DNA from: Candidatus Omnitrophota bacterium
GTDB taxonomy: Bacteria > Omnitrophota > Gorgyraeia > 1-14-0-20-64-10
Assembly: GCA_023248155.1 (NCBI GenBank)
Contig: JAHFFE010000007.1
Span: forward strand, 4,401 to 68,400
Direction: 5' to 3'
Length of the DNA: 64,000 bases
A program made the translations under genes and the position numbers. The notes below the pieces were generated by a model that saw nothing but the letters and a program-made list of their open reading frames with translations, made no database searches and was not told where the DNA came from. Within the stretch, counting starts at the first letter, position 1. Each line of letters begins with the position of its first letter. Positions 8,201-29,200 of this stretch are shown piece by piece.

Positions 8201-11200
8201 CCGCTTACAAAAAATCAGCCAACCCCATCAAAGAAAAATTCAAGATCGATGTCTATCATTTGAAAGAGTTGAACAAATTCGCCGCTATTCGCAGGGTAGT
8301 CAACAGCGCGGGTGAAATTGAATTAAGCGTTGATATTTCGCATTTGGACGGAACACCGCTGACCGAAAAAGAATGGAATAAAGAGGCAAAATTTGAAAAA
8401 GCCAAAGTAGATCCGGATGTCGGTGTTAAGGGCGGGTACGCCACCTTTATTGAAAAACACGTGGATGAAATCCCGTCGATTTTGTTGGATGACGCCACCT
8501 CGTACATTGAAGTTGACGACGGTCGTCCCGCGCGCGTTCACCTTCCGGATATTAAGACCGATAAACTGACCGGCCGGTTCGGTCCCAAGCTTGAGCGTCT
8601 GCGCCGGGTTTTCTTGATTGGTGTCGGTTCTTCGTGGCGCGACGCCAAAATTGTCGAACAGATGTTTGGCGATTTGCTGCAGGGGGTGGAACTGGTGCAG
8701 ATTTCCGTTCAGGATCCGGTGGAAATTCAGAACCTTGGGATTAAACTGAACCCGGAAACTGATCTGGCGATCGGCATGAGCTGGTCCGGATCAACGGCAT
8801 CGATGGTCAAGCTGTTCAACCGTCTTTCGAGCGGAGAAGACCAGGGCCAGGATGTTCCGTTGATCGCCGTGACCGGTAAGACTTCATCGGATATGGCCAG
8901 CGTTGCCAAGAGAAGCGCGGGGTATGTGGATGTGCAGTCCGGGCCGGAATCATCGGTAGCAACCACGAAAGGATTTGAATCGGTCCTTTACTGCCTCTGT
9001 TTGCTGGGCGTGCAGTTAAGCCAGATGCAGGGCAATGACAGTTTAGTATCGGCCCGCACCCAGTATGTTCAGGAATTATGGGATTTGGTTGACCAACACA
9101 TGGATGCATTGGTGCGGGAACCCGGAAAATCTTCCGGACAAAAAGAACGGTCCACCGCTAAAGTTGAAAATCCCCAGGAACGTTCGAAAGTTCAAAAAGT
9201 GGCCGATGCCTGGCATAGCCGGCAGAAAGTGCTCGTCATTGGAAGCCGCGCCAATCCGGTTTATGTCGAAGGGGAACTTAAGGCGGAAGAAATTGCCTGG
9301 ACGGTCGGCAAGGCGGCGGATATCCGTGATGACAGCTGGCGGTCTTTGCTGGAAAACAGCGCCGATCCCCATGTGACCGAATCGGAGCGAGTCGCCACCA
9401 TTTTTAACATGACGGATCCGGGCACGTTGGATCAGTTTATAAAGGCCATTCGTGAAGTGACGGATCAGGGTATCCAGGTGGTGGTCCAGACATTTCAAAA
9501 AGACAATTCCCATTACGCTGAACTGCAGCGGATGGAACAAGAAGGAAGAATCGCCCTGTTTGAAGTTCCGCGGGTTCGCACGACGCTGCAGGCGTTGGTC
9601 GACGCGATTTTCTTTTTTCAATTTTCAATTGCGTTTGCCCGTTCGCACGGGTTAACAGATCCGCAGATCGATAACCCGAGAAACCTCGCGAAATCAGTCA
9701 CTGTCAGCGGCGCTCGCTCATTGGAAGAGCTGGTCCGGAACTCGGCGACCCGCGTGGTGAAGGTGGACGATATTACTGGGCGGCTGGATGCTTTGCAGCG
9801 CATCTACTCTGTCTATCGGAGCGGTTTAGCCGCGCGATGGGCGGAGCTGCGCTCCGCTCGTCAGCAGGCCGGCGCCCGCCTGTCCGTATTGTTGAATGGG
9901 CTTGTCCGGGAATGGTTTGGAAAACTGGCCAAGCCGAATGAACCGCAATCTCTCTGGCCGGAGGCATCTCAGCGTGATCGCGCTGAACGGTTGCTTGCCC
10001 GGTTTAAACAAGCGGCCAATGCCGATAATCCGACGGCTAAGGTATTGATTGTAACCGACGAAGAAGCCACCCAATACGCCGGCGAAGCGGCTGCCGGCGT
10101 CTATGGTTCCCGCGAGGTGGTTGTTTCAGGCGAACATAAAGATCTCTATGATGCCGATAAAGGCATTAAAATTCGCGCCGGAAAATGGTATTACCGTGCT
10201 TCGTATGACGTTGTTGCCGAGAATTACACGCTGAAGTTTGACGCGAAGCTGAATCCTTACGCGAATCCAGGCGAGCAGCCGGCGGATGCCGGTCCCATCG
10301 TGATTGTCAAAGGACAACAGCAGGTTTCTCTCAACGGAAAACAGTACCGCGTGGATCAGGGCTCGTTTCTCAAGGATCCCAAGGAAAAAGACAAGCTGGT
10401 TTCCGGGCTTCAGATGCGGGCTGAACAGCCTGACCTATTGCTGGCCGGCGTCGAAAATATCCGGGTTGTTCGGGCAACGGATCCCAATGTGGATCAGATG
10501 GTTGATCAGGATACGGTGGTGGTGCTGGTTTCGCGCGCGCGAAACAGGGGATCGGACAATAATAAGGACACGCTCCTTACAAAGCCCGATACCAGGAAAC
10601 AACTTCCTATTCCTTCGAATGCCCAATCCGAACAGACTATGCGCGCGTTGGCGGATCGTTTGGCAAAAAAAGCGATCCCTCTGGTGACGATTGCCGATCG
10701 TGATTCTCTCTTGGAGGATCCTTCATTGGACGAAGTTCGGGTCACGCACTTTTCGCTGGGGAGTGATTTTACTTCATCAAGCGTTTATCCGTCGACTTAT
10801 GTGGCATTGCTGGCGGCGGGTGTCCGGATGGGAGATATCTTGGGGCGTGATGTCCAGCCGGTGGCCCGCTCTCTGTTCGCGGTGCCTGGCATGGTGTCGA
10901 ATGTTCTGGGTTCAGAGCAGCTTCAGAAGCATCTGGAACAGGTTTTGTATCGAGTTCGCGGGTATAAAAAGGTGCATATTATCGGCGGCGGCCAATCGTA
11001 CGCCGATGCTAAGGAATTAGCCCGGGTTCTTTCAACGCTGGGTATTTTTGCTGAAGCCCAGTTGAATGACTCTGCCTGGCATGGGCCGTTGGCCGCGGCG
11101 GATCCTAACCGCAGAAAATACGGAGAACCGGGATCGGATGCCTACAAATATAAATATGGCGTCAATGACGGTTACGATACCGATGGCGATACATTGGTTG

Positions 11201-14200
11201 TCATCCTTGCGACCGACAGCCGGTTTTTTGATTCGGCCATTACCGATGGGCAGGTTTATGATTCCCGCAATGCCCGGGTTCTTTTCCTGACTTCGGATTC
11301 CAACTACGCGCCGAATCTTCCAAGCGGCGATAAAAATCCGGTTCACCGTTCGATCATTGATTCCGGACCTTTGCAATTAGAGGAGTTAACGGAAGCGCAG
11401 GCAAAAGATCCGTCATTGAAAAATCCGGAGGGTGTTTTTACGGTTCTTGACGCGCCTGATTTTCTCTCTAATTTTGGAGCGTTTGCGTTTGGAATCATGC
11501 TGGCGGATGAATTCTCGCATCAGAATGAGGAATCCCTTCGAACTCGTCCCGCCGAAGAGATTAGCCGGTTTAATTTGAGTGCCGAGTCCGCCTCTCCTGC
11601 GGGGGTTCCATTGGACTCTGTTCCTTTGCCGCAGCCGTTGAACAGTCTGGAGACTTTTTTGACCACGAGCGGCGGCCGCCCATTGGGCGAATCAAATCTT
11701 TTTAATCAATTAAGCACTCTGTCGGCAAAGCAATCGATCCAGGGGGTAATGGCTCCTTATCGTGACAGGCCGCAACAGACGGCTGTTTATCTGGCGTTTC
11801 CCTATCAAGATCCGGGTCAGGCTCAAACCGTGCTTACCGGTATTGTTTCAGATGTTGCCAATTTTCTGAAAAAGCGAGACCCAATCATCGATTCCTTTGG
11901 CCGAAGTTACGATGGGATTTTTTATCTGACACTGGTATTTGATAATACAGTCTGGTCTGCCGTTCCCGGCTTGCTTCAGGCAATTCAATCGTCTGTTCAG
12001 GCCCGCGCAGTTCCGGGAGCGCCTGTTTCTATTGATTCTTCCGCGATGCCTGGCACGGGAGTACAATCATCCACGGTATTTACGGGTCTCAGGGAAGGGG
12101 TTGTTGGCGGAGATGCGGCCGCTGAGACGGCCTTTATTGCCGAAATGAACCGGGTGCTTGGATTTGAGCACGTGTCCGATCAGGGGGATGTCGCGAACCA
12201 AATTCTGGAAGGTTATCGCCGGTTCCATGAAACGCGTACTCCTCAGGTTTTCGCGGTGCCCCATCCTTCCGGGGAGGCCAACCGATTCATATTGGCGGCC
12301 ATCGATGAAAATCTTCCCCATTTGGTAAACGCGCATGTGACCGAGCCGCTTGATCGGAGGGAAGGATTGGATTATGCGACATTAGCGGGACAGAGAATCG
12401 ATCATGTCGCCGGATTGATGGTCATGGATGTTCAAAATGTTCTTGCGGATGATATTGCCGCGATCGCCGCGAAAGCTCAGAAATCTTTAAGAGGCGCGGA
12501 TGCTCCCGCCGCGTTCCTCGCGATTTTTGATCCGTTTGAGTACCAACTTCCGGGATCGCCGCTAAAATCTTCTGTCTACGCTGAATTCCTGCTTGTTCAG
12601 GAAGGGGCCAAAGTTCGGACCATCATTTCCGATTATGTTCCTCTTCGTGGGCAACAGAATGCCTTCTCGGTGACCTTTCGGGATGATACCTTATCTGCCG
12701 AAGCGCTTGACCGCGATATTCGCGCGGCCATCACCCGACATGGTTTAAAGATTGCAACCGACCCTGCCGCAAATGAAATGGTATTCTCGGTTGTCTATGA
12801 AGGGGTTCGCTTTATGCGATACATTGTGAATTCCATTACTACCGTAGACGGCAAGCTTGATGAGAGATTGTTAACAACGGTTGAAGAGGTTGACGCCTTT
12901 GTCGCTCCGTCTTCCGCGGACAGTGCCGTGGTGTTGCGCGATCAATTGGTTGAACAGGCGCACCAGGAATTTCTGGCGGACCCCATCCAGGGGATTCATT
13001 TTAAAGCCGAATACGATACGCAAACAAATCAAACGGTTTTGGTTGTTGTCAGTGAAATTGGTCAGCCCAATCTGGTGGCGGCTGTTTCTGCCGTCGTATC
13101 AGAGGCCAAGCTTGATCTTGGGAGAAACTTTGGCGCGCTTTCGGATCGTTCCGGAGAAGATGTGGAGTATTTCATCGTACCGGGCGAAGTGCCGGCCGCG
13201 ACCATTGACCAGATTCAAAACAGACTCTCGGCAACGGTTACGCTTCATTTCCAGAGAGCAGTGTTGGAAGTGCTGCCTTCTTTAAATTCAAACGAAATAG
13301 CTCTCCATTTTCGTGACTTTAGATCCGCGGTTGAGAACGGGGTTGCTTTCCCAACTTTGTTGGCTGAGGGCACTTCCAATCCGGATAAGCAAATCCTCTC
13401 GTTTGCTGTTCGTCAGCCATCCGTTGCTGATATGCGAATACAGTTATTACAATCTATCGTCAGAATTTTCGACTTAAACTCAAACGGGATTACCGGAAAC
13501 ACTTTTTTTGAATACGACGGTGTAATGATCTTCCATGCGAATATCGCAAAAACCGCACTCGGTTCCCCGATTAACGTTGTACAACAGCAGATCACGGAGG
13601 TCTTGCAGCCGTTCAAGGCTGGTTTGGAAGAAACCGCTGGAAAAGCCACCGAGGATCAACGGCTGGATGTGTTGGGCGCCAGCGCACGGTTCCTGCGGGT
13701 TTTGGAGGCGGGCGGTGCCACGGTTACATTCTCCGGTCCTTTGCACGATAACGGTTTGGTTAATTCGTTGGAGGGCGCTGTCAGCGTTGTGAACGCGCAG
13801 CGGCTGGAGGGAGGCGCTTATACGGTGGCAACCTATTACCCGGGTGGTGGAACAAAGACGAGCGCTGTTCTTTTGGAACAGAGGGAATTGCCGGATGTTC
13901 AGGTTAGGGATGTGACCAGCGACTTGAATAATTTGCGCGCCTCAACGGCTGAAGCGGTTACTTTCACTCTGAATCAGGTGCCGGTTGTTTCGAGTCAACA
14001 GGCGATAACCCAGGGATTTGTATTCGGATCTTCAACCGGGCTGGCTCTCGGGGTAGCGTTAAGCCGTGTCCAGGATTCTAACGGGAATCGTTTGCCCGCG
14101 GCTTTTGTGGTAGCCAACGGAGATCAGCGGGCTGTCTTGGAGCGGATCGACGGGATTTCTCCGGAGAGCATCCACGCTACGGCAGACCAGGCCGAAGCGT

Positions 14201-14382
14201 GGCTGTTGGAACAGTATCCGGCTGTTACGTCCGATGCAATTCAGGATTTCGGAATAACGAAACCGGTTTCTCAAACCGTGGTACAGATTTTTGAAATTCT
14301 GTTTGGCATCACGCCGGATGCCGCGCTTCAGTTCCAATTAGAACAGTTAGTTGCCCAGGCCACGCTGGCCTTCCAGGCATAA
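5227..14382 (+). CDS. Giant exported protein 2 (3051 aa) with an embedded GlmS-like module (class II glutamine amidotransferase + 2 SIS domains)
   Basis: An uninterrupted 9.2 kb ORF with a GGAGAGAGA SD. The N-terminus is TM/signal plus AWALRPG..GLEE. Internal matches to E. coli GlmS by eye: [23 protein letters not shown] (MCGIVG..LRRLEYRGYDSAGLAV), [29 protein letters not shown] ([29 protein letters not shown]), [11 protein letters not shown] (ETDTEVIAHL), SIS motifs [14 protein letters not shown] and [11 protein letters not shown] (VASTKAFTTQL), and C-terminal [10 protein letters not shown], identical to the GlmS C-terminus. Confidence 0.85.
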   Translation: [3051 protein letters not shown]

Positions 14383-14386
14383 AAAA

Positions 14387-17300
14387 ATGAAAATAAAATT
14401 TTCTCCGGTTTTTAAGAGATTTGCAGGCTGGCTTGCAATCGTTTCATTAACACTTTTGCAGGCAGTACCCAGTTATGCTCTACGCCCCCTTGCTGCCGGA
14501 CAGGAAGAGCGAACTCAAAGCAGTTTGAAGCAGTCACTGCGTTTATCAGCTGGGAATGCCACCTCCGGTTTTGAGGAAATTCCTGCTGAAGTTGCTGCAG
14601 AAGCTGAACTGCGCAGATGGAAAGAAGATAAAGGCACTGGCTTCTTTATTACTCCTCAGGGCGGACGGGTGGCAATTCATACCAATGTTCCTGGATTGGA
14701 TGTAAATATTTTCTCGATTGATCGGGAAGCTCAGATCTACTCCACCGCTGTTGTGCTTGGTGAGCAAACGGTTCTCAAGAAGGGCGCCCAGGTGTATGGC
14801 ATCGTGCAAGACGCGGAAGTGCATGAGAATGCCGTCCAGCGCGGTATTTTAAGAACGCTTGTTTCGTTGGCTGAGGATTGGAATCCGAAATTTTTGGGAG
14901 CGCAAGTTCCTTCTGATCCGGCGATTATGACAAAGATCAGCGGCAAAGAAGTCATCAAATCCGTTCTGGGCAAGGGAGCCCGTATTGAAACCAATGAGGT
15001 GGAATTAATCAACACCCATGTTGATTCGGTGGATGACGATAACTATCGAACTATTTTAGGATTGGGCGGCATGTACCAGAATGTTGAGATCGGCGCTGGA
15101 AACCGCCACGTGGGTCAGGGGCGCATCAAGGTCATGTTCCCCACCCGGTTTGAAGATCTGGTAACGGTTATGGCCGATGAGGGAGTGGTGCAAGAGTTCG
15201 CCGAGGCGCGAATTCCGATGGGCCGCACCTACGCGGGCGATGCGCATGGATATATTGAGTTTACAGGCTCTAATGGTTATTTGTGGATGGACGGGGTTGG
15301 CACTGTTCACGAAGTCAGCAATCTGCCCTCCGTGGGTGTTTCTATTGGTGAGATCTTTGCCAGCTTTGACGGCACTCTTCCGCTGAAGGAAGCTACCATT
15401 CCGAAATTGACTTCAAAGCAAGGAAGCGGCCACTGGTGGGTTGGCGGTGGGGCCGGGACGATTTCCGCGGGAGCGGTAGTCATTGGTCTTCACCATGGCG
15501 CTGTAACGGAAACCGGTGATCTTTTGAAGGCGTCCAATGTCACCGCGCCGGCTGGTTTTGTTGTGTTACAAAATTCAGTGACGGGCATCCCTTTTCCGGG
15601 TAGTCATGTTACCGGTTTGAGCCAAACCAAACAGCAGAATCCTCTGTGGGTGTTCCGTGAGCATCCCGAAGTGGTCTGGGGGTTGGTCTATGAAGCATGG
15701 CAACAGGCCAAGCGGGTGGCCGAATTGCGGGCCATACAAAATACTGAGTTTGATAAAAATGCCTACCTGAAACAAGCGGCCATCGATTTGGCCCAGTGGC
15801 CGCAGAGAATGCTTTCTACTGTTTCCGCATTGGCAGGGCAAAGGAATCGTTCGGATGTAAAGCAGCAGGCCGATTCATTAAGAAAACAATTCAGCATGGA
15901 AGCGAATACTCCGCAGCTGTTGGACCAGTTGGTTGAAGGGACAACCGCAAAGACAAATGGGTACAGCGATGCGGTTGCGTTGGCAAGAAAGCTGTGGAGT
16001 GAAAGCCCTCTCTCTAAAAAAGATGCCGTGGTTCGAGATGCTTTGAAACAGCATGTTTTATGGTCCGATCAGGATCGCCGTTTTTTTGAGAACGGAGCGC
16101 AATCTCCCATAGTTCAATCGTCCGTAGAAAAAGACCCAACCGCTGTTGTGATCGGATCCAATCGCTTGACGGGCAACACTTACTTGGGCCGGGGCGTCAT
16201 CGTCGTGGGTTCTGAACTGCACGATGTTCGCGTGGAGGGTGTTTCCGAAGCCGATTATGCGGCTGGCAAGAGGGTTCTGGTGATTAACAGCCGTGTTCAG
16301 CGGACTTCTGTTGGAGAGGGAACTTCTCTGGTTCAAGTGGTTGCCGACGGCATGAAATTGGGCAAGAATTCAGATTTCAGACTTTCACGGCTGGAGCGCG
16401 GCGCTGTCGGGGATCAATCATGGGCCTCAGGCGCTTATTTTGTAAATTCCGCTGTCGGCAGTAAAGCCGAATTGAAAACAGGTTCCTACACATTCAATAC
16501 GACCGCCGGAAACACGGTAATCATTGGCGGTATTCTAATGGAGTCCGTCGTTGGAGACGGTTATGTGATGAACCATGCCGGAGCGGCCGGTTTTGGTGTG
16601 CGTGCTTCGAACATTCCTGTTAAGAATGAGACTGGAAAATTATTGGGAACAGTGCCTAATCCGACCAACCATTCCGACGGGGTGTTGATGGGAGATCCTT
16701 CTAAAGGCCCGGATCAGGTCTTTCTAGACGGGCATGTAATGATGGGCGCTCACGCCTGGCTGAAAACGGTTACGGACGATGGGGAATTAAATCCGGTCCA
16801 TATCGGGGCCGGTTCTTTTGTAAAAGGATTTGTTCCGCCGGGGCAGAGGGTTATCCCGCTTCAGTTCTTTGACGCGGCAGTCAACGGGAGTGCGAATCCT
16901 TCTCTGGTGCTGGATCGTCTTGGGCCATCCTTCATTCAGTTTTTGATCGGTTATCCGCTGCGTAAAGCTAATCCTGATCAGGCGCAGCTGGTTGCTTATT
17001 TGATGCCGACATTGATCCGCGAAGCCATTGCTCAATGGGATCAATACGGCAAAGCCATGGGTTTTTCGCCCGAGCAAATAGCTGCTGTGAAAGCACAGCT
17101 GTCCGACGAGCATTTGAACAGCGGCAATTGGAATTCGGTTTGGGATCCGGGCCGATCTGCGCCAGAGGCAGTCCAGCCGGGGCTGGTTCTTCAAGTTCCG
17201 TTGTTTAAAACTCCTGACAACAAATATGCTTTTGGCGGACCCAAACCTTCCGTTGATTCAAAAAAACCTGTTGTTTCGCTGGAGTCGGTGCCTGTCCAAA

Positions 17301-20224
17301 ATCGCGTTCTTGCCATTGAGTTGGGAGGCACATTCATACGGGTGGCTTTGGTGGACAATCGTGGTGATGGGAAAATTCTACTGACCGTTCCGGATGCGCA
17401 AATCGCGTTTATCCCGAATGTAGTTCATAGCGACGCATCCCAGAGACAGACGGTTCTGGATCAGATTGCGGCACAGGAACAGGCGCTCCTGAGGGCAGCC
17501 GGAATTGACGCTGCACAAATTGGTAAAAAAGCTGTCAGTTCTCCCGGTATTATCGATCCAAGCGGATTCGTGAACCTTCAATATAACTTGCCGTTTACCG
17601 GACAGAGCCTAGCGCAATTGCTGCAGGCAGATGTCATGAACGACATGGTAGCCGCTGTCTTTTCGGAAGCCACACCGGCAGCTTTTGAAGGGGTGGGCCG
17701 TGTTTTCTATGCGACTATTTCCAGCGGTGTTGGTGCGGCAGATATCGATAAATCAGGTCAGGTAACGAATCGTGAACTCGGAGGGCTTGCAGTACCCGGA
17801 GGCAAGTTGGAAGATTTTGTATCAGGAATCGCATTGGGCAATCTTGCTCGTCAAAAAGTCGAACAGCAGGCTGAAGGGTTTCAGAGGATTCTTCAGTTGG
17901 CGGATGGAGATAAGCAAAAAATTGAGGGAGTAACGGTCGGACTGGCTTTTGCCGAGGGAAATCCGGTTGCCGTTGAATTGGTCAATAACGCGGCTCGAAT
18001 ATTAGCTGATGGAATCGTGAGCATGACTCGTACTGTTGCGGATGGACAGCCTGAGTCTGTCCGATGGATTCTTGGCGGCGGAGTCGGCCAGGGAATCGGC
18101 CAGAGATTCCTCTCTTTGGTAGATGAGCAAGTGCGGAAAAATTTGGGGCCCTCTTCTGACTTGAAAATATTTATCCAGTTGTCTACTCAAAACCCGCAGG
18201 AGCGCGGGTTGGTGGGTGCGGCTCGAAAAACCGCCGCTGGCCAGGAAGAGACCATTACGCTGGAATCGGCCGCGCAGATCGTACGCGGTTGGGATCAACT
18301 GCAGTTGGCTCAGCAACAGGCGGTGGTACAGTCGTTGGCCGATCACGGCTACACGACGGAAAAACATCTCCGCAATAGCGGATTGGTCGTGAACGGATCT
18401 TCGGATCTGCCGGCCAGTTTCGTGGCGTTCCCGCCGGTCGTGGATGGCACGCCGCGGGGAAACGAGCGTGAAAATTTACTGGCGACTGGATTGTCTCCAG
18501 CTGTGTTGCAGAAGCAGGGCGTGATTATCGCTGCGGCAGGGGAAGGGTCCCGTCTTTTGCAGGCCGCAATTGAGCAACAATTGTTGCCGTCCGATGGCGC
18601 CGATATTTACACAAAACCGACAGCTCCGGTCACTCCGGTTCGCGGGCAGTCCACGCTGGGATACCAACTTGAAACTTTGGCCGACATGGCCGCCACGCAC
18701 GGTGTTTCCATGCCGGTTCGCGTGGTTTTGCATCCTGAAGTCGGCCGCAAAGTGGCCGACTGGATCGCGGCCAATCGAAATTTCGGGCTGCAGCATCTGG
18801 AGCTTGTTTTTCAGGGGATGAATCCGGCGCTGGATGAAACGGGGCAGATTGTTTTGCGCGATGATAATACCGTTTCGTTTAATCCGGACGGGACCGGCGG
18901 TGTGGTTCAAGCGGCGTTGGCCAACCGCGGCGAGCAATGGTTTTTGAATCAGCTGGGGCAGGATGGGCGCGTTCAGGTGATCAACGGCGATATGCTGCTT
19001 GAAGCCAACCTGGTTGGATTAGTCGCCGGGGTCGGCGAGACAAAACCGGTGGTAGGCATCGGCTATAGATACCCTCTGGAGAAAGAATCTCCCACAGGTC
19101 CGCACCGGTTCAAACTGGGGACATTCACGGTGTTGAATGAAGGAGGTCGAACGGTTGCAAAAATTGTTGAGTACAAAGAGCGCGGATTGGTAACTGGCAT
19201 GGCGGGTGCCGTTGTAACCGCCGAACAAGCAGGAACACCGATTATAGCCAACAGCGGTGTTTACGCGTTCCCGGTTGCCGGTCTGGCGGCAAAGACCGCT
19301 GATTTGGTTCCGCATCATCAGAAAGATAAAGATGCGGCCGGGGTGGCTGAAAAAGTTCAAAAGGTTGAAAATTTTGCTACCGATATTCCTGCGACATTCT
19401 CGTCTGATCAAGTTGGGATTTTGTCGGTCGATCAGGCTGTTTTAACGCCTGTCAAAGATGCAGCCGCTCTGAAGCAGGTTCGTGACGGGGCCGTTGCTCG
19501 CGAGCGAGCGCGTGCCCAGGCGCTGGGAATTAAATTGTCGGACCGGGCAAGCGTGGAATTTCATCCGGCGTTATTGACGGCGGGTCGGGTTCAAATCGGA
19601 AAAAATGTTCGTGTTGAAGGCAATGTCGGTATTTATTTCGGGCCGAATGGCGTAACGCTTTACAGACAGGCTCAACCGGATAAACCCTGGGAACCGTTTG
19701 CCATGGATCAGACCGAGACTCTCCGGTTTGCGTCTTCCGCCGCCGGCGTAGTCATTCGAATTCCGGACAATACGGTCTTTTCTGAAACAGGCATTACCGC
19801 GGGCGCGGAAGAGCGTGGTCAATTGCCGTCGGCGACGGTGCAGCGCGCGAATGTGGGCGTGGTGGCCGCTACACCACGCGGATTGGCCCTTGGTGTGGCG
19901 ATCCAACAAGGCGTACAGGGTGTGGAAGTGGCGTTCGTGGCTGATAATGAAGCGCAGGCATCGGGATTGGAAGAACGCGGCGTCCGTCGTTCGGCGATCT
20001 TTCTTGCGCCGCAGTATGGGTCGGTTTCAGCGGCTGCCGATGCTGCAACGGAATGGCTTTCAGCGAAAGGTTTCAGCGCACAACCGCTGGGTGTTAATGG
20101 TCCCGTCACAGGCCGGATTGAACTTGTTTTATCGGGATTGGGTATTCAGTTGGCGGCTGGCGCCGAAGAGATTTGGAACAACTTCGTTAACAATGTTACT
20201 GCGGCAATGAGCGCCCAGGCATAA
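14387..20224 (+). CDS. Giant exported protein 3 (1945 aa from ATG 14387) with an ASKHA sugar-kinase-like domain, a UDPGP-family UDP-sugar pyrophosphorylase-like domain and left-handed beta-helix segments
   Basis: The ATG lies 4 nt after the preceding stop. The N-terminus has the TM plus SYALRPLAAGQEE. Kinase motifs: VLAIELGGTFIRVALVD, SSPGIIDP, YATISSGVGAA, ELGGLAV. UDPGP motifs: IIAAAGEGSRL and FNPDGTGGV (UAP1/UGPase-type PDGNGG). Hexapeptide-like runs are present, e.g. GKNVRVEGNVGIYFGPNG. Confidence 0.85.
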   Translation: MKIKFSPVFKRFAGWLAIVSLTLLQAVPSYALRPLAAGQEERTQSSLKQSLRLSAGNATSGFEEIPAEVAAEAELRRWKEDKGTGFFITPQGGRVAIHTNVPGLDVNIFSIDREAQIYSTAVVLGEQTVLKKGAQVYGIVQDAEVHENAVQRGILRTLVSLAEDWNPKFLGAQVPSDPAIMTKISGKEVIKSVLGKGARIETNEVELINTHVDSVDDDNYRTILGLGGMYQNVEIGAGNRHVGQGRIKVMFPTRFEDLVTVMADEGVVQEFAEARIPMGRTYAGDAHGYIEFTGSNGYLWMDGVGTVHEVSNLPSVGVSIGEIFASFDGTLPLKEATIPKLTSKQGSGHWWVGGGAGTISAGAVVIGLHHGAVTETGDLLKASNVTAPAGFVVLQNSVTGIPFPGSHVTGLSQTKQQNPLWVFREHPEVVWGLVYEAWQQAKRVAELRAIQNTEFDKNAYLKQAAIDLAQWPQRMLSTVSALAGQRNRSDVKQQADSLRKQFSMEANTPQLLDQLVEGTTAKTNGYSDAVALARKLWSESPLSKKDAVVRDALKQHVLWSDQDRRFFENGAQSPIVQSSVEKDPTAVVIGSNRLTGNTYLGRGVIVVGSELHDVRVEGVSEADYAAGKRVLVINSRVQRTSVGEGTSLVQVVADGMKLGKNSDFRLSRLERGAVGDQSWASGAYFVNSAVGSKAELKTGSYTFNTTAGNTVIIGGILMESVVGDGYVMNHAGAAGFGVRASNIPVKNETGKLLGTVPNPTNHSDGVLMGDPSKGPDQVFLDGHVMMGAHAWLKTVTDDGELNPVHIGAGSFVKGFVPPGQRVIPLQFFDAAVNGSANPSLVLDRLGPSFIQFLIGYPLRKANPDQAQLVAYLMPTLIREAIAQWDQYGKAMGFSPEQIAAVKAQLSDEHLNSGNWNSVWDPGRSAPEAVQPGLVLQVPLFKTPDNKYAFGGPKPSVDSKKPVVSLESVPVQNRVLAIELGGTFIRVALVDNRGDGKILLTVPDAQIAFIPNVVHSDASQRQTVLDQIAAQEQALLRAAGIDAAQIGKKAVSSPGIIDPSGFVNLQYNLPFTGQSLAQLLQADVMNDMVAAVFSEATPAAFEGVGRVFYATISSGVGAADIDKSGQVTNRELGGLAVPGGKLEDFVSGIALGNLARQKVEQQAEGFQRILQLADGDKQKIEGVTVGLAFAEGNPVAVELVNNAARILADGIVSMTRTVADGQPESVRWILGGGVGQGIGQRFLSLVDEQVRKNLGPSSDLKIFIQLSTQNPQERGLVGAARKTAAGQEETITLESAAQIVRGWDQLQLAQQQAVVQSLADHGYTTEKHLRNSGLVVNGSSDLPASFVAFPPVVDGTPRGNERENLLATGLSPAVLQKQGVIIAAAGEGSRLLQAAIEQQLLPSDGADIYTKPTAPVTPVRGQSTLGYQLETLADMAATHGVSMPVRVVLHPEVGRKVADWIAANRNFGLQHLELVFQGMNPALDETGQIVLRDDNTVSFNPDGTGGVVQAALANRGEQWFLNQLGQDGRVQVINGDMLLEANLVGLVAGVGETKPVVGIGYRYPLEKESPTGPHRFKLGTFTVLNEGGRTVAKIVEYKERGLVTGMAGAVVTAEQAGTPIIANSGVYAFPVAGLAAKTADLVPHHQKDKDAAGVAEKVQKVENFATDIPATFSSDQVGILSVDQAVLTPVKDAAALKQVRDGAVARERARAQALGIKLSDRASVEFHPALLTAGRVQIGKNVRVEGNVGIYFGPNGVTLYRQAQPDKPWEPFAMDQTETLRFASSAAGVVIRIPDNTVFSETGITAGAEERGQLPSATVQRANVGVVAATPRGLALGVAIQQGVQGVEVAFVADNEAQASGLEERGVRRSAIFLAPQYGSVSAAADAATEWLSAKGFSAQPLGVNGPVTGRIELVLSGLGIQLAAGAEEIWNNFVNNVTAAMSAQA

Positions 20225-20229
20225 TCGTA

Positions 20230-23200
20230 ATGAATTTAAATCCAAAAAAAATCATCAGCGGCCTTATTGTAGGCACTTTCTTTTTCTCCCAGGTTACGCC
20301 CAGCTACGCGCTGCGCGTTCAGCAGCCAGTCGGCGGCGAAGCCGCTTCGGGGCTGGAAGAGAGACTGATCAGCCGTCCATCGCAAGGTTTTGCGACGCGC
20401 GTTGGCGCTGTGCGCGGTGCGGTTCAGACGGCCCGCCGCTCGGTAGGTGCCAAGCAGGCCTCTGTTGCCTGGAACCTTAAAGACGGGCAATTGAGCCCGA
20501 TTGCGTGGGCGTCGGGTCCGGCACTCCCGAATGCGACTACCGTGGTTCCCGCCGTTTTGTCGCGCGCCGAGCAGGGACTTAAATGGTTGTATGGAAAACG
20601 GTCTTCGGTTGCTGTTGTTGAAAACTCTCTAAGGAACGATTTATTAGGCGATTCGGTCTCCGTTGAGTTGCGTGCCAATCATGGCATGACGCTCGATTTT
20701 GATCGCGGAGACAATGCAGTTCGCTTGGATACGACAATTGCCGAAGAATTGTTCGATTCTACCGATATCGATCAGAACGGTCTTTCGGTTTTATACGGAA
20801 TCGGCTTTTTTTATCAACTGCAGTTGGTGGCTGGTCGTTCTCCTCGGGAAGCGGCGCATCTGACGCTGGCACTCTATCAAAATATTTCCGATACTGAACG
20901 GGCTGCGTTGCTTTCTGTTTTAAGATCTCCGCAAATCGATCATGGCAACCAATGGGCTCGCTTCTTTGAGGAAGGATCTAAGCCGGCGGACTATCGCGGG
21001 ATTGATTCGTTGGAACTTGAAACGCGGCTGGAAACCGAAACCAACACGGACACTCGAACAGCGCTTGAAGCAGTTGTCAATCATCGCGACAAATTGGTTT
21101 CTTGGTTGCTGGGCCAACAGTTGATCGACCTTCCGTACGATCGGACAAAAATGCTCGAAGCGATGACGGCCTTTGAAACCAATGTGGATGCCGGTCGTTC
21201 TTTGGCATTTGAGGCGGTCAAAGGTTTCGACCGTAAAGTTGAACAGGCGAATGCCGATCGAGTCGGCACCATGATTCGCGAAGAGTGGCTTCCGGATAAT
21301 ATGCCATACCCGACACTGCTGGCTGGTCGTTACAGCCGCGCGTTTGGCAACCAGGGCGGGTTGGCAGCCAATGCCGTCTATGTGGAAGCTAATCCGGGAA
21401 TCCGTGATTTAGCCCAGTTGTTGGAAACAGAGGCAAAAGCAGAACAGTTGCTGGCTGAATTAAAAGCATTGGAGAGCAGCGTTCCTGCGCGTGCCTTGCC
21501 GAAATTTAGAAAAGCAGAACAAAGAATCGAAGCATTACTGGTTCAGTTGGGGCCCGGTATTGCGCGCATCCGTTTGCTTGTTTCAGGTCAGGCGGCTGCG
21601 TTGACGCAATATAAAGGAGCACTGCAGCAGATTCGTGAAAATATCACGATCTTTTACCGCGAAGCAGCAAGAGTCATTGAGTCGGCCCGTGACACGGCCA
21701 ATGCGGCCGGCGGCAAAGGAATCCTGCGACGGTTAACACAGAATGTTTCAAAACCATTTCAAGCCGCACAAGAAAAAGTGTCCGAATTTGCGGCCCAGAG
21801 CGGTCGTTTGGCAACAATTACCAATGATTTGGAAACCGCAGCGCTTCAGGCACCGTCACAGCCGGCTGCTTTTAGTGTTTTGTTGCAGCGGCCATCACCG
21901 ACCGGCTCCATCAACTTCAATGCCAACGAATTAGTCGAAAAACCAGAACAGGAACCGGCACTGCGCGAATTGGCCCGATTGGGAGGCCAGAATAGCTATA
22001 CCAGCCCCAGCTATGACTGGGTTTCTGAAGCGACCGATATCATTGAAGCCGCTCCGTTGTTTATTTATGAGCGGACCGTTGTACTGGAAGATGGCAAATC
22101 CGTCACTGTTTTTGAAGTCGACCAGGAAGGTCTCGAGCAGACAGTCCGGCAGATGGCCGATTACTGGGCGCTGAACATTGATAAAACAATCGATTCAGAA
22201 CATCTGGCATTAGCCCGCGAAATTGTTGTTGCCGCCGATCCTGTTCTTTCAGGGCGGGCCGGTCAATTAACAGGGCAGGGCATATCAGTAGAAGCGGCAC
22301 ATCGGCAGGTAATTTATGAAGCGTCTGAGAAGCGTCCTGAACTGCTGCGGCTGGTGGGAACCACGGCTGCCTGGCTGGCCGCGGAATTTGACCGGCGGAT
22401 TACGGAGGTTGAGAAACATACCGAAGCGGAATGGCAGAAAGATCATTTTATCGACCGGATGGAGTCATTGCGCGATGTCGTGGTTACGGGGCGCTCTCCA
22501 TCTGAGTTACTGTCATTGGCTCAGGATGCGATTGGGAGTCATACGGCCGAGGTAGACCGTTTGACACCATTGGCATTACGCCGTCGTAGACCGATGCCGG
22601 CATTTCATTTGTTAACGACGCAAGCGCCTGGCCTCGTGCAAGGTTTCTTTCAAGCGGTTCTTGAAGAAGAGATGGCGTTGCGCAATGTGGCCAAAGCCAA
22701 AGGGTTGGATGATGAGGTTCGCGATCGCGTAAAACGGTACCAGCAGAGAATCGCCGAATTGGGCCGCACCGTCATTCAGGAATTTGGTTATCAGCCGATT
22801 CTGGAACAAAAGAAATCAGAACTTCCGGCCAGTATGGCGGATGACGAGAAGGAACGGCAGGCGATTCAACGGACGATTGCCGATCATATGCCGTTGCAGC
22901 AGGAACTGGCAAAATTGGCAGTGCTGGTTGAGTTTGCGGAAGCCGAAGGAAAACCGATGGATCCGAGCCACCCCGATCCTTCGCAGGTGGAAGAAATTAT
23001 TTCCGGACAAACCGTCGAGTTGACTGCCGAGGCGGTTCGGGCCGTTTGGCAGCGCAACCAGCTGGATCCTGAGCTGGCTAATAAGGTGATAGCGCTTGAT
23101 TCGACGCAGACTGATGAAGCGGCGATTGCTCAGGCGATTCATCAAACACCGATCTATGAAGAAGAACTGCAAAGCAATATCCGCTGGCTGGCGCGTCAGC

Positions 23201-26200
23201 GCGCAATTGACCAATTATCCAGGCAGCACGCCGAGCTTTATCTTGCGGAGCAGGCCAAATCAAATGGTATTAACCCTCCAAATTGGTACAGAAATCATAC
23301 CTCGTTGGCACAAACGACGGCTCGCCGCGAAGCGATTGCCGCGCATAACCTGCAAGGGTTGTTGATGGATCCGCGCTACGCCTATTCCAACGGTGCGTTG
23401 AAAGAAACCAGCGAAGGCCGGCTTCGTCCGACCGGTGCGCGTAAACGGTACCATCTGATTTACGGTCCCAGCCGCGTGAACTTGGGCGCAGGCGAGCGCG
23501 ATTCGGTTGAGGTTTGGCCGCAGTGGGTAGGCGTTACCGATCCGTTGGCGGCCGCACATGCGCTGGCGTTTTATCAGTTGATCAACTTCAATCCTGAAGT
23601 CCGCACGATTATGGAAGCGGAGAACCTGAAAGTTTCTGAGAATCAGTGGACCGCAATGGTGCGCGCGGTGCGCAATGCTGAAGCCTATTTCGTTGGACGG
23701 CTGGGTGTAGGCGATATTGAAGATCTGGCGCATCAATTCAACCGGCGTAATGGTCTGCCCGGCGCCTGGCTGAAAGACGGAGAATCGTACGCGGCCGGAC
23801 CGACCACCGGCTACTGCATTCCAAAAGACCTCTTATTCAAAATGTTCGTTGCGACGGCACTCGATGGCCGCAAGATGACGCAGATCGGTGTTCCGAGACA
23901 TCTGCAAGCCGGTGTCTTTAAAATGATGTCGGAAATTTTAGCGGCTCAAGCTAATTTCGACACGGTCACCGACTGGGAAGCCTGGGCTGCGCAAACAATG
24001 CTTTCCGAAAGTTCTCTTCGAGAACGGTTCGGCGCAGCGGATGGCGGGAAATTAAACCAGCTATTCAGCCAATATGTTTCTGTTACCGGCGGCGTGACGG
24101 CTTTCCATCTGACGAAAATGCTTCAGATTCTTCAGATGGTTGGCGTTCCCAGCCCGACATTAGTCCCAGGCAAAAATCTGCACGACGCGCTTTGGGCGCA
24201 ATGGGCCGACTTGAAGTTGACGCTGGCTGCCGAGCAGGTGAACCGCTCTTTGATTTTCCCGATGACGCGCGAGATTCCCGATGGTGTTGCCGAAGCCCGC
24301 CGCTTGAACCCGGGCGTGAATATTGCTGCTCCGGAACAAGCCTCAATTCATATGTTTGGCACCTACAAAGGCGATGATGTCGAGGCTCCGCCGCCCGATG
24401 TCCGGTTCTCCTGGACGATGCGTGCATTTATGATTTTATCCGGCTATGGAAAAGAAGTAGCGCTTTCCCTGGATGAAGACGGACAACTTTTGGCGCGGTT
24501 AAGCTGGGATGGTTTTCTTCCAGATTCCACGGATGAGGAAGATATTAAAGTGGCTCGGTTTGTGGCGCAGAAATTTGCAGGTAAAGATCAATTCGGGGCT
24601 GAAGATTTCGCGTTAGTTGAAAAATTAAAACAAGATTTTCCGCATCATACGACGGTTGGCAACATCACGATTACGGTGGTTCCGGGCGTTTCGGCCGAAG
24701 ACTTGCTCGGTTTTAACGCCGAGACAAAATTATTGTTGGGCGATCGCGCCGCCGCAGTGCGCGAACTGCTTATCTCGAAGGGTATTAACACCGGCCAGAT
24801 TACCGCGAATGCTGTGTTGCGCCATGAATTTCCGGCAGAATGGATTCCGTTGCTTGATCTTGACGCCAAAGAACAAACTGCTTTGAAAGAGGCGGTTGCC
24901 GGCGGAATTCATCCGTTGGTATTGCAGCAGCGCGGACCGGGTACCGATTTCGAGCAAGATTTGCAGGCGCAGGATGTTGCCGTTTTCTCGGTCACGCATC
25001 CGGGAATTGTAACGATGGATCCGTCTAAATTGCGCGACTTGATGCAATTGGGCCGCCCGAATGGGTTACAGAGTGCGTTGGTGGCGCATGATATGGTGGC
25101 GCAGGGCCGGCACCGCGTCTGGTTTGACCGCGATGTGATGCTTTGGTACGCGGCTGCGCGCGGCATTGATGCTGAAGGTAATCCGATTCAAAATTGGTCT
25201 GACCGTGATCAGCAAGGCCGCAAGGCTGTTTATAAAGCGTTCGGTTATGGTGAAGATACCTACCGGCCGCTTCTGGGTACCGATCTGCGGCAGGAAACAG
25301 CCCGGCAGGAACGCCGCGCCGCCGAATTGTTTGAATTGGTCCGGAGGGTCGCCGATTCTGATTTAACCACGCAAGTCACTGCCATCACAGCTTTGCAACA
25401 GCAACTTGATGAACTACGGACGCAACTGCGTACCGAAGCCGAGCTGGCGATCAAATACGAGCAGGCAATGCTTTCATTCCGCCGCAACAAACCGCGTGAT
25501 CAGATCATCCGCGGCTCGCTGGTGGCGCTGGCGTCCGGAAAACCGGTTGAACAATTTGATTTCGTGGATTGGCTTGCAGTCGGCGGCATTTATCTGCTGA
25601 ACGGCGCGCCGCAAGCCCGGCAGGATGAGGTTCGTTCTGTTTTTGACCGGGCCGGCCAAAAGATGGCTTCCGGCTTGGAAGAAAATCCGAATGTCGCGTT
25701 GTTAATCCGTCCGCGCCTGGAGCCGACTTCATTGAGCCGTGCAGAAAGAAAAGGGGAAATGTTCTCCGTCAAAGCGACTGAAACTTTCGCCGAAAAAGCG
25801 GTTGCCCGCCGCAAGGGTTTGGCGCTGCAAGCCGCGCGCCAGTCAGCGCTGCAGGCACGCGAAGAAGGTTTTCGTTCGATTGAGCCGGTTAATTCCGTGG
25901 ATGGAATTCTGCCTGCACTCAATGAAGCGCGCGCTGCCCTCAATGGAATGACTGAGCAGGTAGCGAATCGATCCGGGAATGCGGCGCAGATTCACCGCCA
26001 GAGCGGGCAGGTGATGGGAACTGCGGTAGCGGTACTGAATCGTTTGAATCAGGAATTAACACCGGGACCAGACAGGGAAGAAGTCGCCAAGAAAATTCAG
26101 GCGCTTTCCAAGGGCCGCGAACTGGATGAGAAAGCATGGAGTTCGTTTGGCGGCACCTATGAAGACGCGGGCGTACTGGCCCGGTTTTTTGAGCAGGCCG

Positions 26201-29200
26201 GCCCGAATCGCCGTGAATTGGTGGCGGCCGCGATGGAACTTTTGTATCTGACGATGCTGATCGATAAAACGGCCGAATTTGCCGCATTGCCATCCGACGA
26301 TGTCGATGCTCGCCAACTTTGGCGCGCGCTGTCCGTTTATTACGCCGAAACGCTTGACGACCATTTTTATGAATATAATCCCTGGGCGTTTGACCCGAAG
26401 CGCGGTTCAGCGTTTGTCGATTATTATGATGATGTTGGCGTCCTTAAACCGGAACATCGTGAAGAGCTGTACGGTCTTTCGTGGGCGCATCATCGCGCCG
26501 CTTATTCCTATATCCGCGCGCTGGTTCGCGCAAAAACCGATTACGGCAAACTTCCAAAAGAGGAGTATAACGCGTTGCTCGGCGATGTAACGCTCGGCGC
26601 GACTCCCGATCAAGATCAATTAGCCGTTCAGGCAATCGGCGCCGGAGCGCCCGGTCCCAATGAGTTGTTTTGGCGCGCCTATGGCCAGTACCGTGAAATT
26701 GCTGTGATGCAGAATGACGGGTTCGGGGTGCCTGTGGTGTTTGACCAGTTTGATCCCAATACTCCGGAAGTGATCGACGCGCAGCACCGGCTGAACTTCG
26801 CGTTTGTTTCGCCGGTAGGGCGGACCCATTATTCGCGCGCGCTGATGTCGGCCGCGCAGATGGGATCGAACATTTTTATTACGCGTAACGCCGTCGTGAC
26901 CGAAGTTGCCGGTTCCAATGGAAAAGTCGCCACGATCTCCGACGCGCAGTTTTGGTTGACCGAAGCGCAGTACCGCGAAGCACTGATTCGTTTCCGCGGC
27001 ATGGCCCCCAGCGATGCCGATGCGCAGATCGCGCAAGACCGTGCAGCCGGGCGGATTACGCCGCTCGGGATTCGCGTAGCGGCCCGCTTTACGCAACCGG
27101 TGGTTATTTCGGCCGGAGTGTATCTGCACCATCATTCGATTGAGCCGGAATGGATTGCCGCCGGTTATCCGGCCACCGACAAATCGCCGGTGGTTTATGA
27201 AATCAGTTACGACAAGGCGCTCTATCCGAAAATTTACAATCCGGCCGCTGATACAGGCGTTAACCTTCCGCCTGAGATCGATTGGATGCAGACCGATACC
27301 GACGATAGACCCGAAACTGATGTAAAGCAAGATATCGCCAAAATGCTAAGGCCGTTTGCCGAAACGCATGGCATTATCGTTGCCAAAGGTTCTTCTGAGT
27401 CGGGCGCGCGCAACTTCCGGCGGTTCGATTTCTTCAATGACAACGGTTTTAACGAACAGGTTCTTTCGGAAGCGGTCGATTTTATTTATGAAGTGTCGAA
27501 GGGTCAGAATGTCACGATCCAGCGCGCTATCATCGTTACGCCGATCGCCTGGATGGACCCCTCGGGCGTGAACGATTTTGTCAGCCGCCAGATCCGCGAT
27601 CATGGCGTGCCGGCGAATATTCACCGCTATCCGAAAGACTGGGTTTACAGCACGCAGAGAATTATTATGTCGGCCGGTATGCCGAAAAATCTGAATGATC
27701 TTGATAATCCTGCCAACTGGGAAGCGTCGCATCCGATCAGCTTAAGTAGTTTGCAGGTGGCGACCAATGTAGGGCGGCAGGGAACGCTGGAACTGCTTTC
27801 TCCCGATTTAATCCGTCCGGAATTTCGCGATCAGTTTATCCAGGGATTGCAGGATGCGGGGCGCCGTTCAATGGCAGCGATGGCCAAATATGCCCGGCAA
27901 TATTGGCATGAAGTTTATTTGCCGGCTTATCGCGCCGCGCATGATGGAGCCGATCCGCCCGAATTCGATGCGACCGGTGTTCCCTATTGGTGGCCGCGGT
28001 ATCTAATGCTCGATTTTCTGGCCGAGCCGGTTTTTTACCGTAATGGAGTGGAAGCGGTCGGCGCCCGTGTGGTTGATGTGATTCCCGGTGACGCCGCGCG
28101 CAATGTTTCGGCCCGTTTCGTTTTGCAGGATGCCGACGGCAACCGGTTCGATGGCGAAATCCGCGGGTTTAAATATTGGCTGCTGGAACCGAATGTCGGC
28201 ATCGGATTGTGGCCGAATCTTTGGAAGCGGGAAGAACTTCACGAAAGAGCGCGCGCCAAAGCGGATGGCAATCGTCCGATGGATTGGAACCAGGTTGGCG
28301 TCAGCGACCGGGTTGTGCTTGGCAATTATTTGGCGGCCGGCGAAGCGTTTATGAAAGCAAAATTCGGTGGTGATCATTATGGTCCGGGCGGCCCGCGCCG
28401 CGATCCTCCGCCGATGGGTCCTACTTCTGCGGACATATCGCCGCCAGCAACGGCAGTCACTTTCGTGCAACCGCTTGTTACGGATGTTACTTCTCTACAG
28501 CGTGTCGAAGAATTGAAGTTGGATCAAGATTTAAGCCACCCGCTTGCTCCGGTGATCGAAATTCAGCAGGAACCGGCGTCCGCTGAGCAGTTGAGGGCGT
28601 TATTACCGCATGCGCAGACATTCGCTGTCGTTACCGGTAAGCGGACGCTGATGAACCACCATGTCTATCCGTTTGAGGTAGGTAAGGGAACTGCGGCGGT
28701 TAATGTGATTGGTGTGAACGACGAATGGTTGACTGCGGATGGAAAAGCCACTCGGCTGATGGTCTACAATCCGGAGACCGGGCGTTATCTGGAGTTTCCT
28801 CTTGAGCAGCCGGTCGCCATTAACTCTGCGTTCATTGTTGAGTTGCCGCAGAGCCGCGAAGTAGAACGTCATCAGGAGTTAACGCAGCTGCTTGCTTCCA
28901 ATGGCGTGCGTGTTGTTAACCAGGCCGGTGAAGCACAGCGGCATATGGATGATAAAGCCTGGTTACGGCATGAGAGGATTCCTGAGGTGTTGGTTCCCAC
29001 CGCGATGGTTGTGGAGAAAAGCTCCTCTACTGGGGAGGCCACACTAGGGATCATCGCACGGGGAAGTCCTGCCGGAATCATCATTCAGCCTCGGTCTGGA
29101 ACGACCGAAGGTGAAGGAGTCGCATGGTTTTCCGCCGCGGATACCGATGGACAGTTGGCGCATTTGCGGAATTTATTGAAGACCGGCGATGCGATGGTCT

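Follow-up and report, generated by a model that had tools for sequence, protein, structure and literature searches.

Enzymes that need ATP and UTP but are placed behind a canonical export signal present a paradox, one already noted, and not settled, for the very long Omnitrophota proteins. A 64,000-nucleotide stretch of DNA from a Candidatus Omnitrophota bacterium (assembly GCA_023248155.1, contig JAHFFE010000007.1, positions 4,401 to 68,400 of the forward strand), referred to here in its full length as the window, holds a small and tractable version of this paradox, with genes of 2–4 thousand residues (kaa) instead of 100 kaa, clear module boundaries, a repeated linker, a leader and a tail in common, and a protease gene close by. 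The gene in question, G2 (14387..20224, + strand), is the second of four tightly packed long-protein genes, G1 to G4, and encodes a modular protein of 1,945 aa in which a leader is followed by an N-module, a ROK-family kinase domain, a UDPGP domain and a C-terminal domain. We hold it to be somewhat better than an even proposition that G2 is an exported, modular, hexosamine-activating multi-enzyme protein with two active modules for non-adjacent steps, and that it is one of four co-transcribed, leader-bearing proteins of an uncultured bacterium of the PVC superphylum.

The initial annotation of this stretch had proposed, from six motifs, that a sugar kinase and a eukaryotic-type UDP-sugar pyrophosphorylase are fused within one long protein. 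All six motifs were located in frame in the single open reading frame of G2 (17309-18904, + strand), at the places reported for them: LAIELGGTFIRV (17309-17344), SSPGIIDP (17537-17560), SSGVGAA (17720-17740), ELGGLAV (17774-17794), AAAGEGSRL (18530-18556) and FNPDGTGGV (18878-18904). The span of 17300-19200 proposed for the fusion fits at its start but ends too early, as the UDPGP module runs on to ~19462 and its conserved tail to 19786. An assembly artefact or pseudogene was ruled out for G2, given that the reading frame is intact over 5.8 kb, an identical 1,945-aa product is present in an independent gene call (ENA contig ERZ27280021:k141_3040239) and homologues are conserved.

The first of the two domains is a ROK-family (ASKHA) sugar kinase of the zinc-less type (17309..18223, + strand). 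The Pfam ROK model (PF00480) scored above its curated cut-off of 22.9 bits on both the excised segment (45.9 bits, E 7e-12) and the whole of G2 (33 bits), which bears out the kinase assignment, with the match extending over G2 residues ~975-1279 and profile positions 2-288 of 294. The closest relatives in the PDB were the zinc-less polyphosphate/ATP-glucomannokinase 1WOQ (E 2.7e-5), Streptomyces glucokinase 3VGK and N-acetylmannosamine kinases (NanK 6q26). When aligned to 1woq and 3vgk, the domain was seen to retain the catalytic Asp (VMNDMVAA), the phosphate-2 motif (SSGVGAA) and the adenosine motif (ILGGGVG), and E-L-G is also kept. The catalytic Asp and these two motifs, together with a match to nearly the whole Pfam model, are shared with the known ROK kinases Glk, NagK, NanK and 1WOQ. 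The top NCBIfam model for the domain was N-acetylmannosamine kinase, at 35.9 bits against a cut-off of 283, and because this score lies far under the cut-off the sugar specificity is not assignable. Polyphosphate was considered as the phosphoryl donor, given that the best PDB match is a polyphosphate/ATP kinase, and was set aside, as an E of 2.7e-5 makes this match a lead only.

The second domain (18269..19462, + strand; residues ~1295-1692 of G2) is a full-length UDPGP domain of the UAP1/AGX1 type, resembling UDP-N-acetylhexosamine pyrophosphorylases. Comparison of residues 1289-1788 with all PDB sequences by phmmer returned as top matches only eukaryotic-type UDP-GlcNAc pyrophosphorylases, led by mouse UAP1 (1VM8, E 1.1e-6) and human AGX1/AGX2 (1JV1/1JVD), then fungal and other entries of the same name; for 1VM8 and 1JV1 the E-values lay between 1e-6 and 5e-6. 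The C-terminal half of the domain alone gave no phmmer match in the PDB and was recovered with the family profile only. This profile, built from nine UDPGP modules (alignment A2), matched UAP1 structures at E 5e-14, and the match takes in the helices at the N-terminus, the catalytic core and, towards the C-terminus, KxEKF..D and SPLKN. HHalign comparison of A2 with 12 relatives of canonical size (A6), one of which (P0028) is matched by the Pfam UDPGP model at E 1.6e-35, gave a probability of 99.9% (E 2.3e-34, 395 aligned columns). The motifs of the domain (an N-terminal 'W-D-x-L' helix region, GEGSRL, TKPT, NPDGTGG, NGD, VEYKE, KVENFATD and TPVKD) correspond to those of UAP1/AGX1 (1JV1, 1VM8; fungal 4BMA/9G53; T. 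brucei 4BQH; PF01704), with which homology is full-length and includes the N-terminal helical region; the motifs in common are GxG(T/S)RL, the PKG Lys, PDGxGG, (V/G)D, EY(S/K)E, K(M/V)E(K/N)F..D and (S/T)P(L/V)K(N/D). NCBIfam gave no match on the UDPGP segment. Pfam detects the ROK domain and misses the UDPGP domain, which phmmer against the PDB, the family profile and HHalign each found independently, and the identities of both domains, including the eukaryotic character proposed for the second, can be regarded as secure.

A HMMER scan of 1.84 billion cluster representatives yielded 116 relatives of the UDPGP module. The best of these were modules within long proteins (P0007 with 5,397 aa, P0008 with 2,903 aa, P0009 with 739 aa, and P0010-P0018), followed by ordinary proteins of ~480 aa; two of the long ones, P0010 and P0012, scored 20.9 and 19.3 bits with the Pfam UDPGP model, for which the threshold is 22. 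Positions invariant across the nine aligned modules (26-54% identity) are G-E-G-x-R-L and P-x-G-x-x-G, the Lys counterpart of the canonical PKG Lys, Asp in NGD, Glu in VEY, both Glu and Asp in KVE..TD, and Lys in (I/V)KD. We take these to be the nucleotide- and phosphate-binding residues of AGX1, with triphosphate and Mg bound through the GxGxRL Arg, the PKG-equivalent Lys and the KxE Lys. That these binding residues are kept in modules so far diverged speaks for a working uridylyltransferase in the UDPGP module. The domain is extended by a conserved beta-rich tail (VEFHPA...GxxVxVxG...; 19541..19786, + strand, from alignment A2) whose similarity to a region of GlmU is marginal (E 3e-4 to 9e-4, with no single stretch significant). 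AlphaFold2 modelling of the ROK and UDPGP domains from a 2-sequence alignment reached a predicted local distance difference test score (pLDDT) of 32.6 and was unusable.

The order of the two domains had been read by the initial annotation as the logic of a sugar salvage or activation pathway. A kinase followed by a pyrophosphorylase is indeed present, but the two do not make consecutive steps. ROK kinases phosphorylate O6 and produce sugar-6-phosphates, UDPGP enzymes use sugar-1-phosphates, and the anomeric sugar kinases belong to the GHMP or APH-like families. As a maker of 6-phosphates stands here beside an enzyme that needs a 1-phosphate, a phosphomutase is needed between them. It is therefore highly improbable that G2 performs a direct two-step salvage, in which the kinase makes the sugar-1-phosphate for the adjacent pyrophosphorylase and channels it as in FKP, even though the domains are adjacent with only a short linker between them and natural sugar kinase/pyrophosphorylase fusions are known, namely Bacteroides FKP (PMC11982464) and the zebrafish glucuronokinase/pyrophosphorylase (PMC3938481). 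These fusions, and the two-step fusion GlmU, resemble G2 in combining sugar-activation steps in one polypeptide; in the FKP type, however, an anomeric GHMP kinase feeds the pyrophosphorylase directly, whereas the kinase of G2 is of the 6-kinase ROK type and the closest homologues lack its fusion. Nor is the adjacency conserved, as the closest homologue has a ROK domain and no UDPGP domain, while in the other UDPGP-module proteins no ROK was detectable with the G2 query or Pfam, and relatives are supplied with mutase modules instead.

A word-indexed sequence search returned only P0002, P0003 and P0009. The last of these consists of a leader, a UDPGP module and a C-terminal extension only, and P0003 carries neither ROK nor UDPGP. 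In the homologue at locus L002 the N-module is followed by AGAEAEE, a ROK domain read across a frameshift, AAGLEG and the tail domain, with no UDPGP. The frameshift lies within ROK (L002 about 12980-13100), so that the called protein, the JGI homologue P0002, ends in an Arg/Gly-rich nonsense tail while ROK and the tail domain carry on in another frame; it reflects either an assembly error or a pseudogene. The GlmS/SIS region found in G1 and the N-module of G2, which are encoded by separate genes in the window, form one chain in P0003 and in the P0002/L003 protein, with AG(A/V)E(E/Q) at the junction and the same leader at the N-terminus. Between a head that stays constant and a tail that recurs, the modules are thus reassorted.

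The company kept by the UDPGP module elsewhere is consistent with a shared pathway. P0008 combines PGM/PMM domains I-III, a galactokinase-like GHMP kinase, an inositol-monophosphatase-like domain and two UDPGP modules; PGM_PMM_I is present in P0012-P0014 and PP2C in P0010. Among 13 further long UDPGP proteins, PGM_PMM_I (6), PIG-L (3) and NAGPA (3) were found, as were AMG1_III (phosphoacetylglucosamine mutase), Hexapep_GlmU and LbH. Two distant relatives of the module are annotated 'hypothetical protein [Candidatus Omnitrophota bacterium]'. The closest relatives of solved structure, the GlmS-like module next door and the company of AGM1, PIG-L and NAGPA all point to N-acetylhexosamine (HexNAc) chemistry as the theme of the system, and we infer a HexNAc specificity for the UDPGP module itself from its nearest solved relatives and the co-occurring AGM1, PIG-L and NAGPA modules.

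The proposal that G2 bears a signal peptide agrees with inspection of its N-terminus, where a Sec-type leader, MKIKFSPVFKRFAGWLAIVSLTLLQAVPSYA, is followed by LRP (14387..14479, + strand). The leader has a K/R-rich n-region, a hydrophobic core of ~16 residues and small residues at -3 and -1 (S-Y-A, with L following), and is the sole hydrophobic segment of transmembrane (TM) type in G2. Leaders of G1, G2, G3 and G4 (5227-5330, 14387-14488, 20230-20320 and 31970-32070) end, in that order, in the boxes PAWALRP, PSYALRP, PSYALRV and PGYALRA, and the same box, [SAG][YW]ALR[PVA], is present in P0003, P0009, the L003 protein and L085_g1006. It may represent a dedicated sorting or processing signal. 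A looser 'LR' box was considered as a family-wide sorting signal and rejected, as it was found in 21 of 23 family members and also in 24 of 55 controls within the same wide window; the box is convincing only in its tight form, [YW]ALR, among the closest relatives.

A second short element, [AS]GxEE, lies ~6-12 residues past the leader box in all four long proteins. Counted as [AGS]GxEE, the motif occurs 14 times in these proteins against 0.84 expected, with a maximum of 6 in 2,000 shuffles. The copies of [AS]G[LAQF]EE in G2 (14495-14509, 14564-14578, 18236-18250, 19799-19813, 19961-19975 and 20156-20170, + strand) are placed past the leader, between ROK and UDPGP, where AGQEE forms the linker (18236..18250, + strand), past the UDPGP module and twice in the tail. 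In G1, G3 and G4 it is likewise found at apparent module boundaries and near both termini, and the motif also brackets modules in the relatives P0003 and P0007-P0010 (the UDPGP module in P0007-P0010) and in L085 proteins. As the codons differ among the copies, [AS]G[LAQF]EE is conserved at the protein level, and it may link modules, mediate docking or be a site of proteolysis. A C39 peptidase in G1 was considered as the protease acting on AGxEE, the N-terminus of P0003 being C39-like by eye, and was dropped for want of profile support.

The C-terminal domain of G2 spans ~140 aa (19793..20197, + strand) and was recognized by tblastn similarity to the C-terminus of the 1,006-aa L085_g1006 (L085 ~12880-13300); it is also present in G3 (31549-31965). 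No Pfam match was obtained for it. Three of the motif copies belong to this region, AGAEE before the domain (19799-19813), SGLEE (19961-19975) and AGAEE (20156-20170). Many family members have a short hydrophobic C-terminal tail with Ala as the last residue. At the other end of the protein, the N-module (aa 72-950; 14600..17236, + strand) is 52-56% identical to internal parts of P0002 and P0003 and is the best-conserved part of G2. It gave no Pfam match and, as a profile against the PDB, no match at E<=1; relatives were absent from 185,579 species genomes and found at two metagenome loci only, and AlphaFold2 from a 3-sequence alignment was unusable (pLDDT 30.1). The 'hexapeptide beta-helix runs' that had also been proposed for G2 found no significant profile support, although aa 640-734 show weak paralogy to a sub-threshold Hexapep/LbH region of G4.

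The four long-protein genes lie on the + strand with gaps of 4-5 nt between G1 and G2 and between G2 and G3, while G3 and G4 overlap by 14 nt. G1 (5227..14382, + strand; 3,051 aa) has the same leader and contains a GlmS/GFAT-like glutamine amidotransferase (7399-7587, + strand) and SIS domains (8425-9015 and 10966-11109, + strand); it matches GlmS/GFAT in both the amidotransferase and SIS parts, the enzyme segments are spread over ~3.7 kb, and the remainder has no recognisable domain. G3 (20230..31983, + strand; 3,917 aa) has the same leader and C-terminal domain as G2 and a GHMP kinase N domain (30328-30537, + strand). G4 (31970..35734, + strand; ~1,254 aa from the ATG at 31970), again with the same leader, gave hexapeptide/LbH and NUDIX matches below threshold only. 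No acetyltransferase was identified within the window. Downstream follow, in order, a secreted S8 subtilase with a fervidolysin-type prodomain, identified with Pfam (35831..37744, + strand), a BatD-domain protein (37797-38252) and an OmpA-like coiled-coil lipoprotein (38249-38992). The S8 subtilase would be a candidate processing protease. Upstream of the long-protein genes lies G0 (3446..5197, + strand; 583 aa), which bears a leader and has no significant Pfam match, the nearest being a weak match to the ChaN/Tiki superfamily (E 0.027).

This arrangement recurs at locus L085, which carries P0003 and is syntenic with the window in having a G0-like gene, long proteins, S8, a metallo-β-lactamase (MBL)-fold protein and BatD. 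The long proteins of L085 include one of 1,407 aa with PGM_PMM domains. Its G0-like gene is 84% identical to G0 (C-terminus, L085 2-301), far above the conservation of the long proteins, and its S8 is 52% identical to that of the window, with S8 and BatD at L085 17601-20266.

Other parts of the window were also surveyed. A canonical ROK gene truncated at the edge of the window (51-734, Pfam E 2.3e-31) adjoins a GH94 phosphorylase gene (797-3217) of the cellobiose/chitobiose phosphorylase type (E 8e-102), in which an N-terminal leader is not evident. Should this phosphorylase act on chitobiose, it may be speculated that it would yield GlcNAc-1-P and GlcNAc, the substrates of a UAP1-like and a ROK enzyme. 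Up to ~60.2 kb, nearly all large open reading frames have the + orientation, and cumulative GC skew shows a monotonic rise over the whole window. Judged from N-terminal sequences alone, the region at 42-50 kb resembles a metal-resistance cluster (P-type ATPase, multicopper oxidase-like, TolC-like and CDF proteins), and glycine-cleavage genes lie at 51.9-56.2 kb. The GcvPB of the window is 75% identical to that of a metagenome-assembled genome labelled Planctomycetia and 56-57% identical to those of Gimesia, Omnitrophota (57%) and Poribacteria, so that the nearest genome by this protein carries a Planctomycetia label and the host is a bacterium of PVC type.

Several observations weigh against active modules in an exported protein. 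In the ROK domain the phosphate-1 motif reads IELGGT, with Glu for Asp where it aligns to IDIGGT of 1woq (the same Glu is present in the ROK domain of the L002 homologue), the ExGH motif reads ELGG, with His replaced by Gly, and the Cys zinc site CxCGxxGC is absent; the domain further differs from known ROK kinases in being embedded in a multi-module protein with predicted export. In the UDPGP module ~14 aa are inserted in the signature loop between GxGSRL and the Lys, Thr occupies the position of Asn in AGX1 PDGNGG, and the Pfam UDPGP model (PF01704) gave no match to the excised segment at E<=10 or to the whole of G2 at E<=0.1. This divergence beyond the Pfam model, the loop insertion, the substitution and the extra beta-rich tail set the module apart from UAP1/AGX1, which is a cytosolic enzyme of ~500 aa, whereas the G2 version lies within a leader-bearing protein of 1,945 aa. 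About 60% of G2 has no recognisable fold, neither a Pfam search of chunks (E<=0.5) nor phmmer against the PDB revealed a PGM or other mutase in G1-G4, and the S8 synteny is confined to two related loci, P0009 being without S8 nearby. Outside the cytoplasm no supply of ATP, UTP or sugar phosphates is known, and as the cofactors are cytoplasmic, export and catalysis are hard to reconcile.

Much of this would be accommodated if the kinase- and pyrophosphorylase-like modules were pseudoenzymes, binding sugars or nucleotide sugars without transfer chemistry in an exported adhesin or scaffold that recognises the glycans of partner cells. The extracytoplasmic location predicted from the leader, with no further TM segment and ATP and UTP lacking there, favours such a role, as do the Asp to Glu and His to Gly changes and the missing zinc motif in ROK, the loop insertion and Asn to Thr change in a UDPGP module on which Pfam is silent, and the large unrecognisable part of G2. 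The triphosphate- and Mg-binding residues of UAP1 are, however, invariant down to 26% identity, which is not expected of a lectin-like role, and the UDPGP module is accompanied by mutases, kinases and phosphatases belonging to the same pathway. We consider the pseudoenzyme explanation rather unlikely. Loss of the zinc site is compatible with ROK membership, and in this respect the domain resembles the zinc-less subgroup that includes 1woq. From the motifs retained, the ROK module is probably a working kinase with an unusual P-loop, and catalytic activity is probable for both flagged modules.

The conflict between cofactors and export would also disappear if the four proteins acted in the cytoplasm of the producer, or at the cytoplasmic face of its membrane, with the leader as an uncleaved anchor or a non-Sec signal and the modules as a fused, scaffolded hexosamine pathway. 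Every module has cytoplasmic cofactor needs, and West-Roberts et al. warn that topology calls for such proteins may be wrong (10.1101/2023.11.21.568195). The N-termini nevertheless combine charges before a hydrophobic core with a small-x-small site (PSYA, with L following), repeated in four proteins and relatives, so that an N-in/C-out orientation with cleavage is predicted. G2 has no second TM segment to return the chain, and the S8 protease, BatD and the OmpA-like protein, encoded alongside, all belong to the envelope. A cytoplasmic site of action is thus distinctly unlikely, and we continue to favour an exported multi-enzyme protein, with export, enzymatic activity and HexNAc specificity each put forward as an inferred part of this reading.

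Proteins of this general kind have been described. Long Omnitrophota/PVC proteins ('Archaeovorins', West-Roberts et al. 2023; 'multi-enzyme metabolic clusters', 10.64898/2026.06.07.730766) carry a signal peptide and tiled enzymes of sugar metabolism, including ROK, PGM and PGI, have a predicted extracytoplasmic topology and are associated with S8 or C39 peptidases; in two preprints their function is left open, with extracellular or prey-directed roles or mis-called topology proposed (10.1101/2023.11.21.568195; 10.64898/2026.06.07.730766). The proteins of the window resemble these 'Archaeovorins' or 'multi-enzyme metabolic clusters' in having a leader (by inspection) and GlmS-like, SIS, ROK, UDPGP and GHMP modules in G1-G3. 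They differ in that the described proteins are encoded by one gene of 10-147 kaa, whereas here four genes of 1.3-3.9 kaa are involved; with 1,945 aa, G2 falls below the length of at least 10,000 aa used for very long multi-enzyme proteins, as do its neighbours with 3,051, 3,917 and ~1,254 aa. In both preprints the word 'pyrophosphorylase' has 0 occurrences and a UAP1-type UDPGP module is not listed. Neither the leader box with ALR nor the AGxEE linkers nor the C-terminal domain in common was met in term searches or in the sections consulted. As far as these texts were searched, the Pfam-missed UAP1-type module, its fusion to ROK and the operon-split format would be new relative to the two preprints, as would the shared ALR leader box, the AGxEE linkers, the common C-terminal domain and the conserved S8/BatD/G0 synteny.

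The nearest metabolic counterpart is the hexosamine pathway (GFAT/GlmS, GNA1, AGM1 and UAP1, with NagK salvage), to which the GlmS-like, NagK/NanK-like ROK and UAP1-like modules in adjacent genes correspond. A counterpart of AGM1/PGM is found in relatives of G2, while none was identified in the window, and unlike the enzymes of that pathway, all carriers here have export leaders and the modules sit in large unrecognised regions. In the system we propose, G1-G4 would be co-transcribed. They share a common leader, behind which lie enzyme modules that can be exchanged and have [AS]GxEE linkers between them. The ROK module would convert a hexose or N-acetylhexosamine to its 6-phosphate, and the UAP1-type module would convert HexNAc-1-P and UTP to UDP-HexNAc and PPi. 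A hexosamine/UDP-sugar activation route would in this way be spread over the gene set, with the GlmS-like step in G1, ROK and UAP1-like steps in G2 and a GHMP kinase in G3; the PGM/AGM1 mutase step would be provided by a module of the kind seen in relatives and at the syntenic locus, though none was identified in the window. Processing at the AGxEE linkers may be performed by the adjacent S8 subtilase. The site of action would be one where a partner cell supplies ATP and UTP, a host or prey cell being the most plausible one, in line with what has been proposed for the long proteins of Omnitrophota.

A more far-reaching version of this proposal, which we judge unlikely, would make G1-G4 exported polyprotein 'metabolic effectors' of a class not described before. 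The leader and C-terminal domain would direct export, S8 would cut at [AS]GxEE, and the released GlmS-like, ROK, mutase, UAP1-like and GHMP kinase modules would rebuild a eukaryote-like hexosamine/UDP-GlcNAc pathway beyond the cytoplasm of the producer, which could be in or on a host or prey cell that provides the ATP and UTP, either harvesting activated sugars or derailing the cell-wall precursor pool of the victim.

If the modules of the exported multi-enzyme protein are active outside the cell, they would represent a new way for host-dependent bacteria to exploit the nucleotide-sugar metabolism of a partner. If they are inactive, they would constitute a family of pseudoenzyme glycan binders. 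Either way, a UAP1-type module missed by Pfam is added to the known repertoire of these long proteins.

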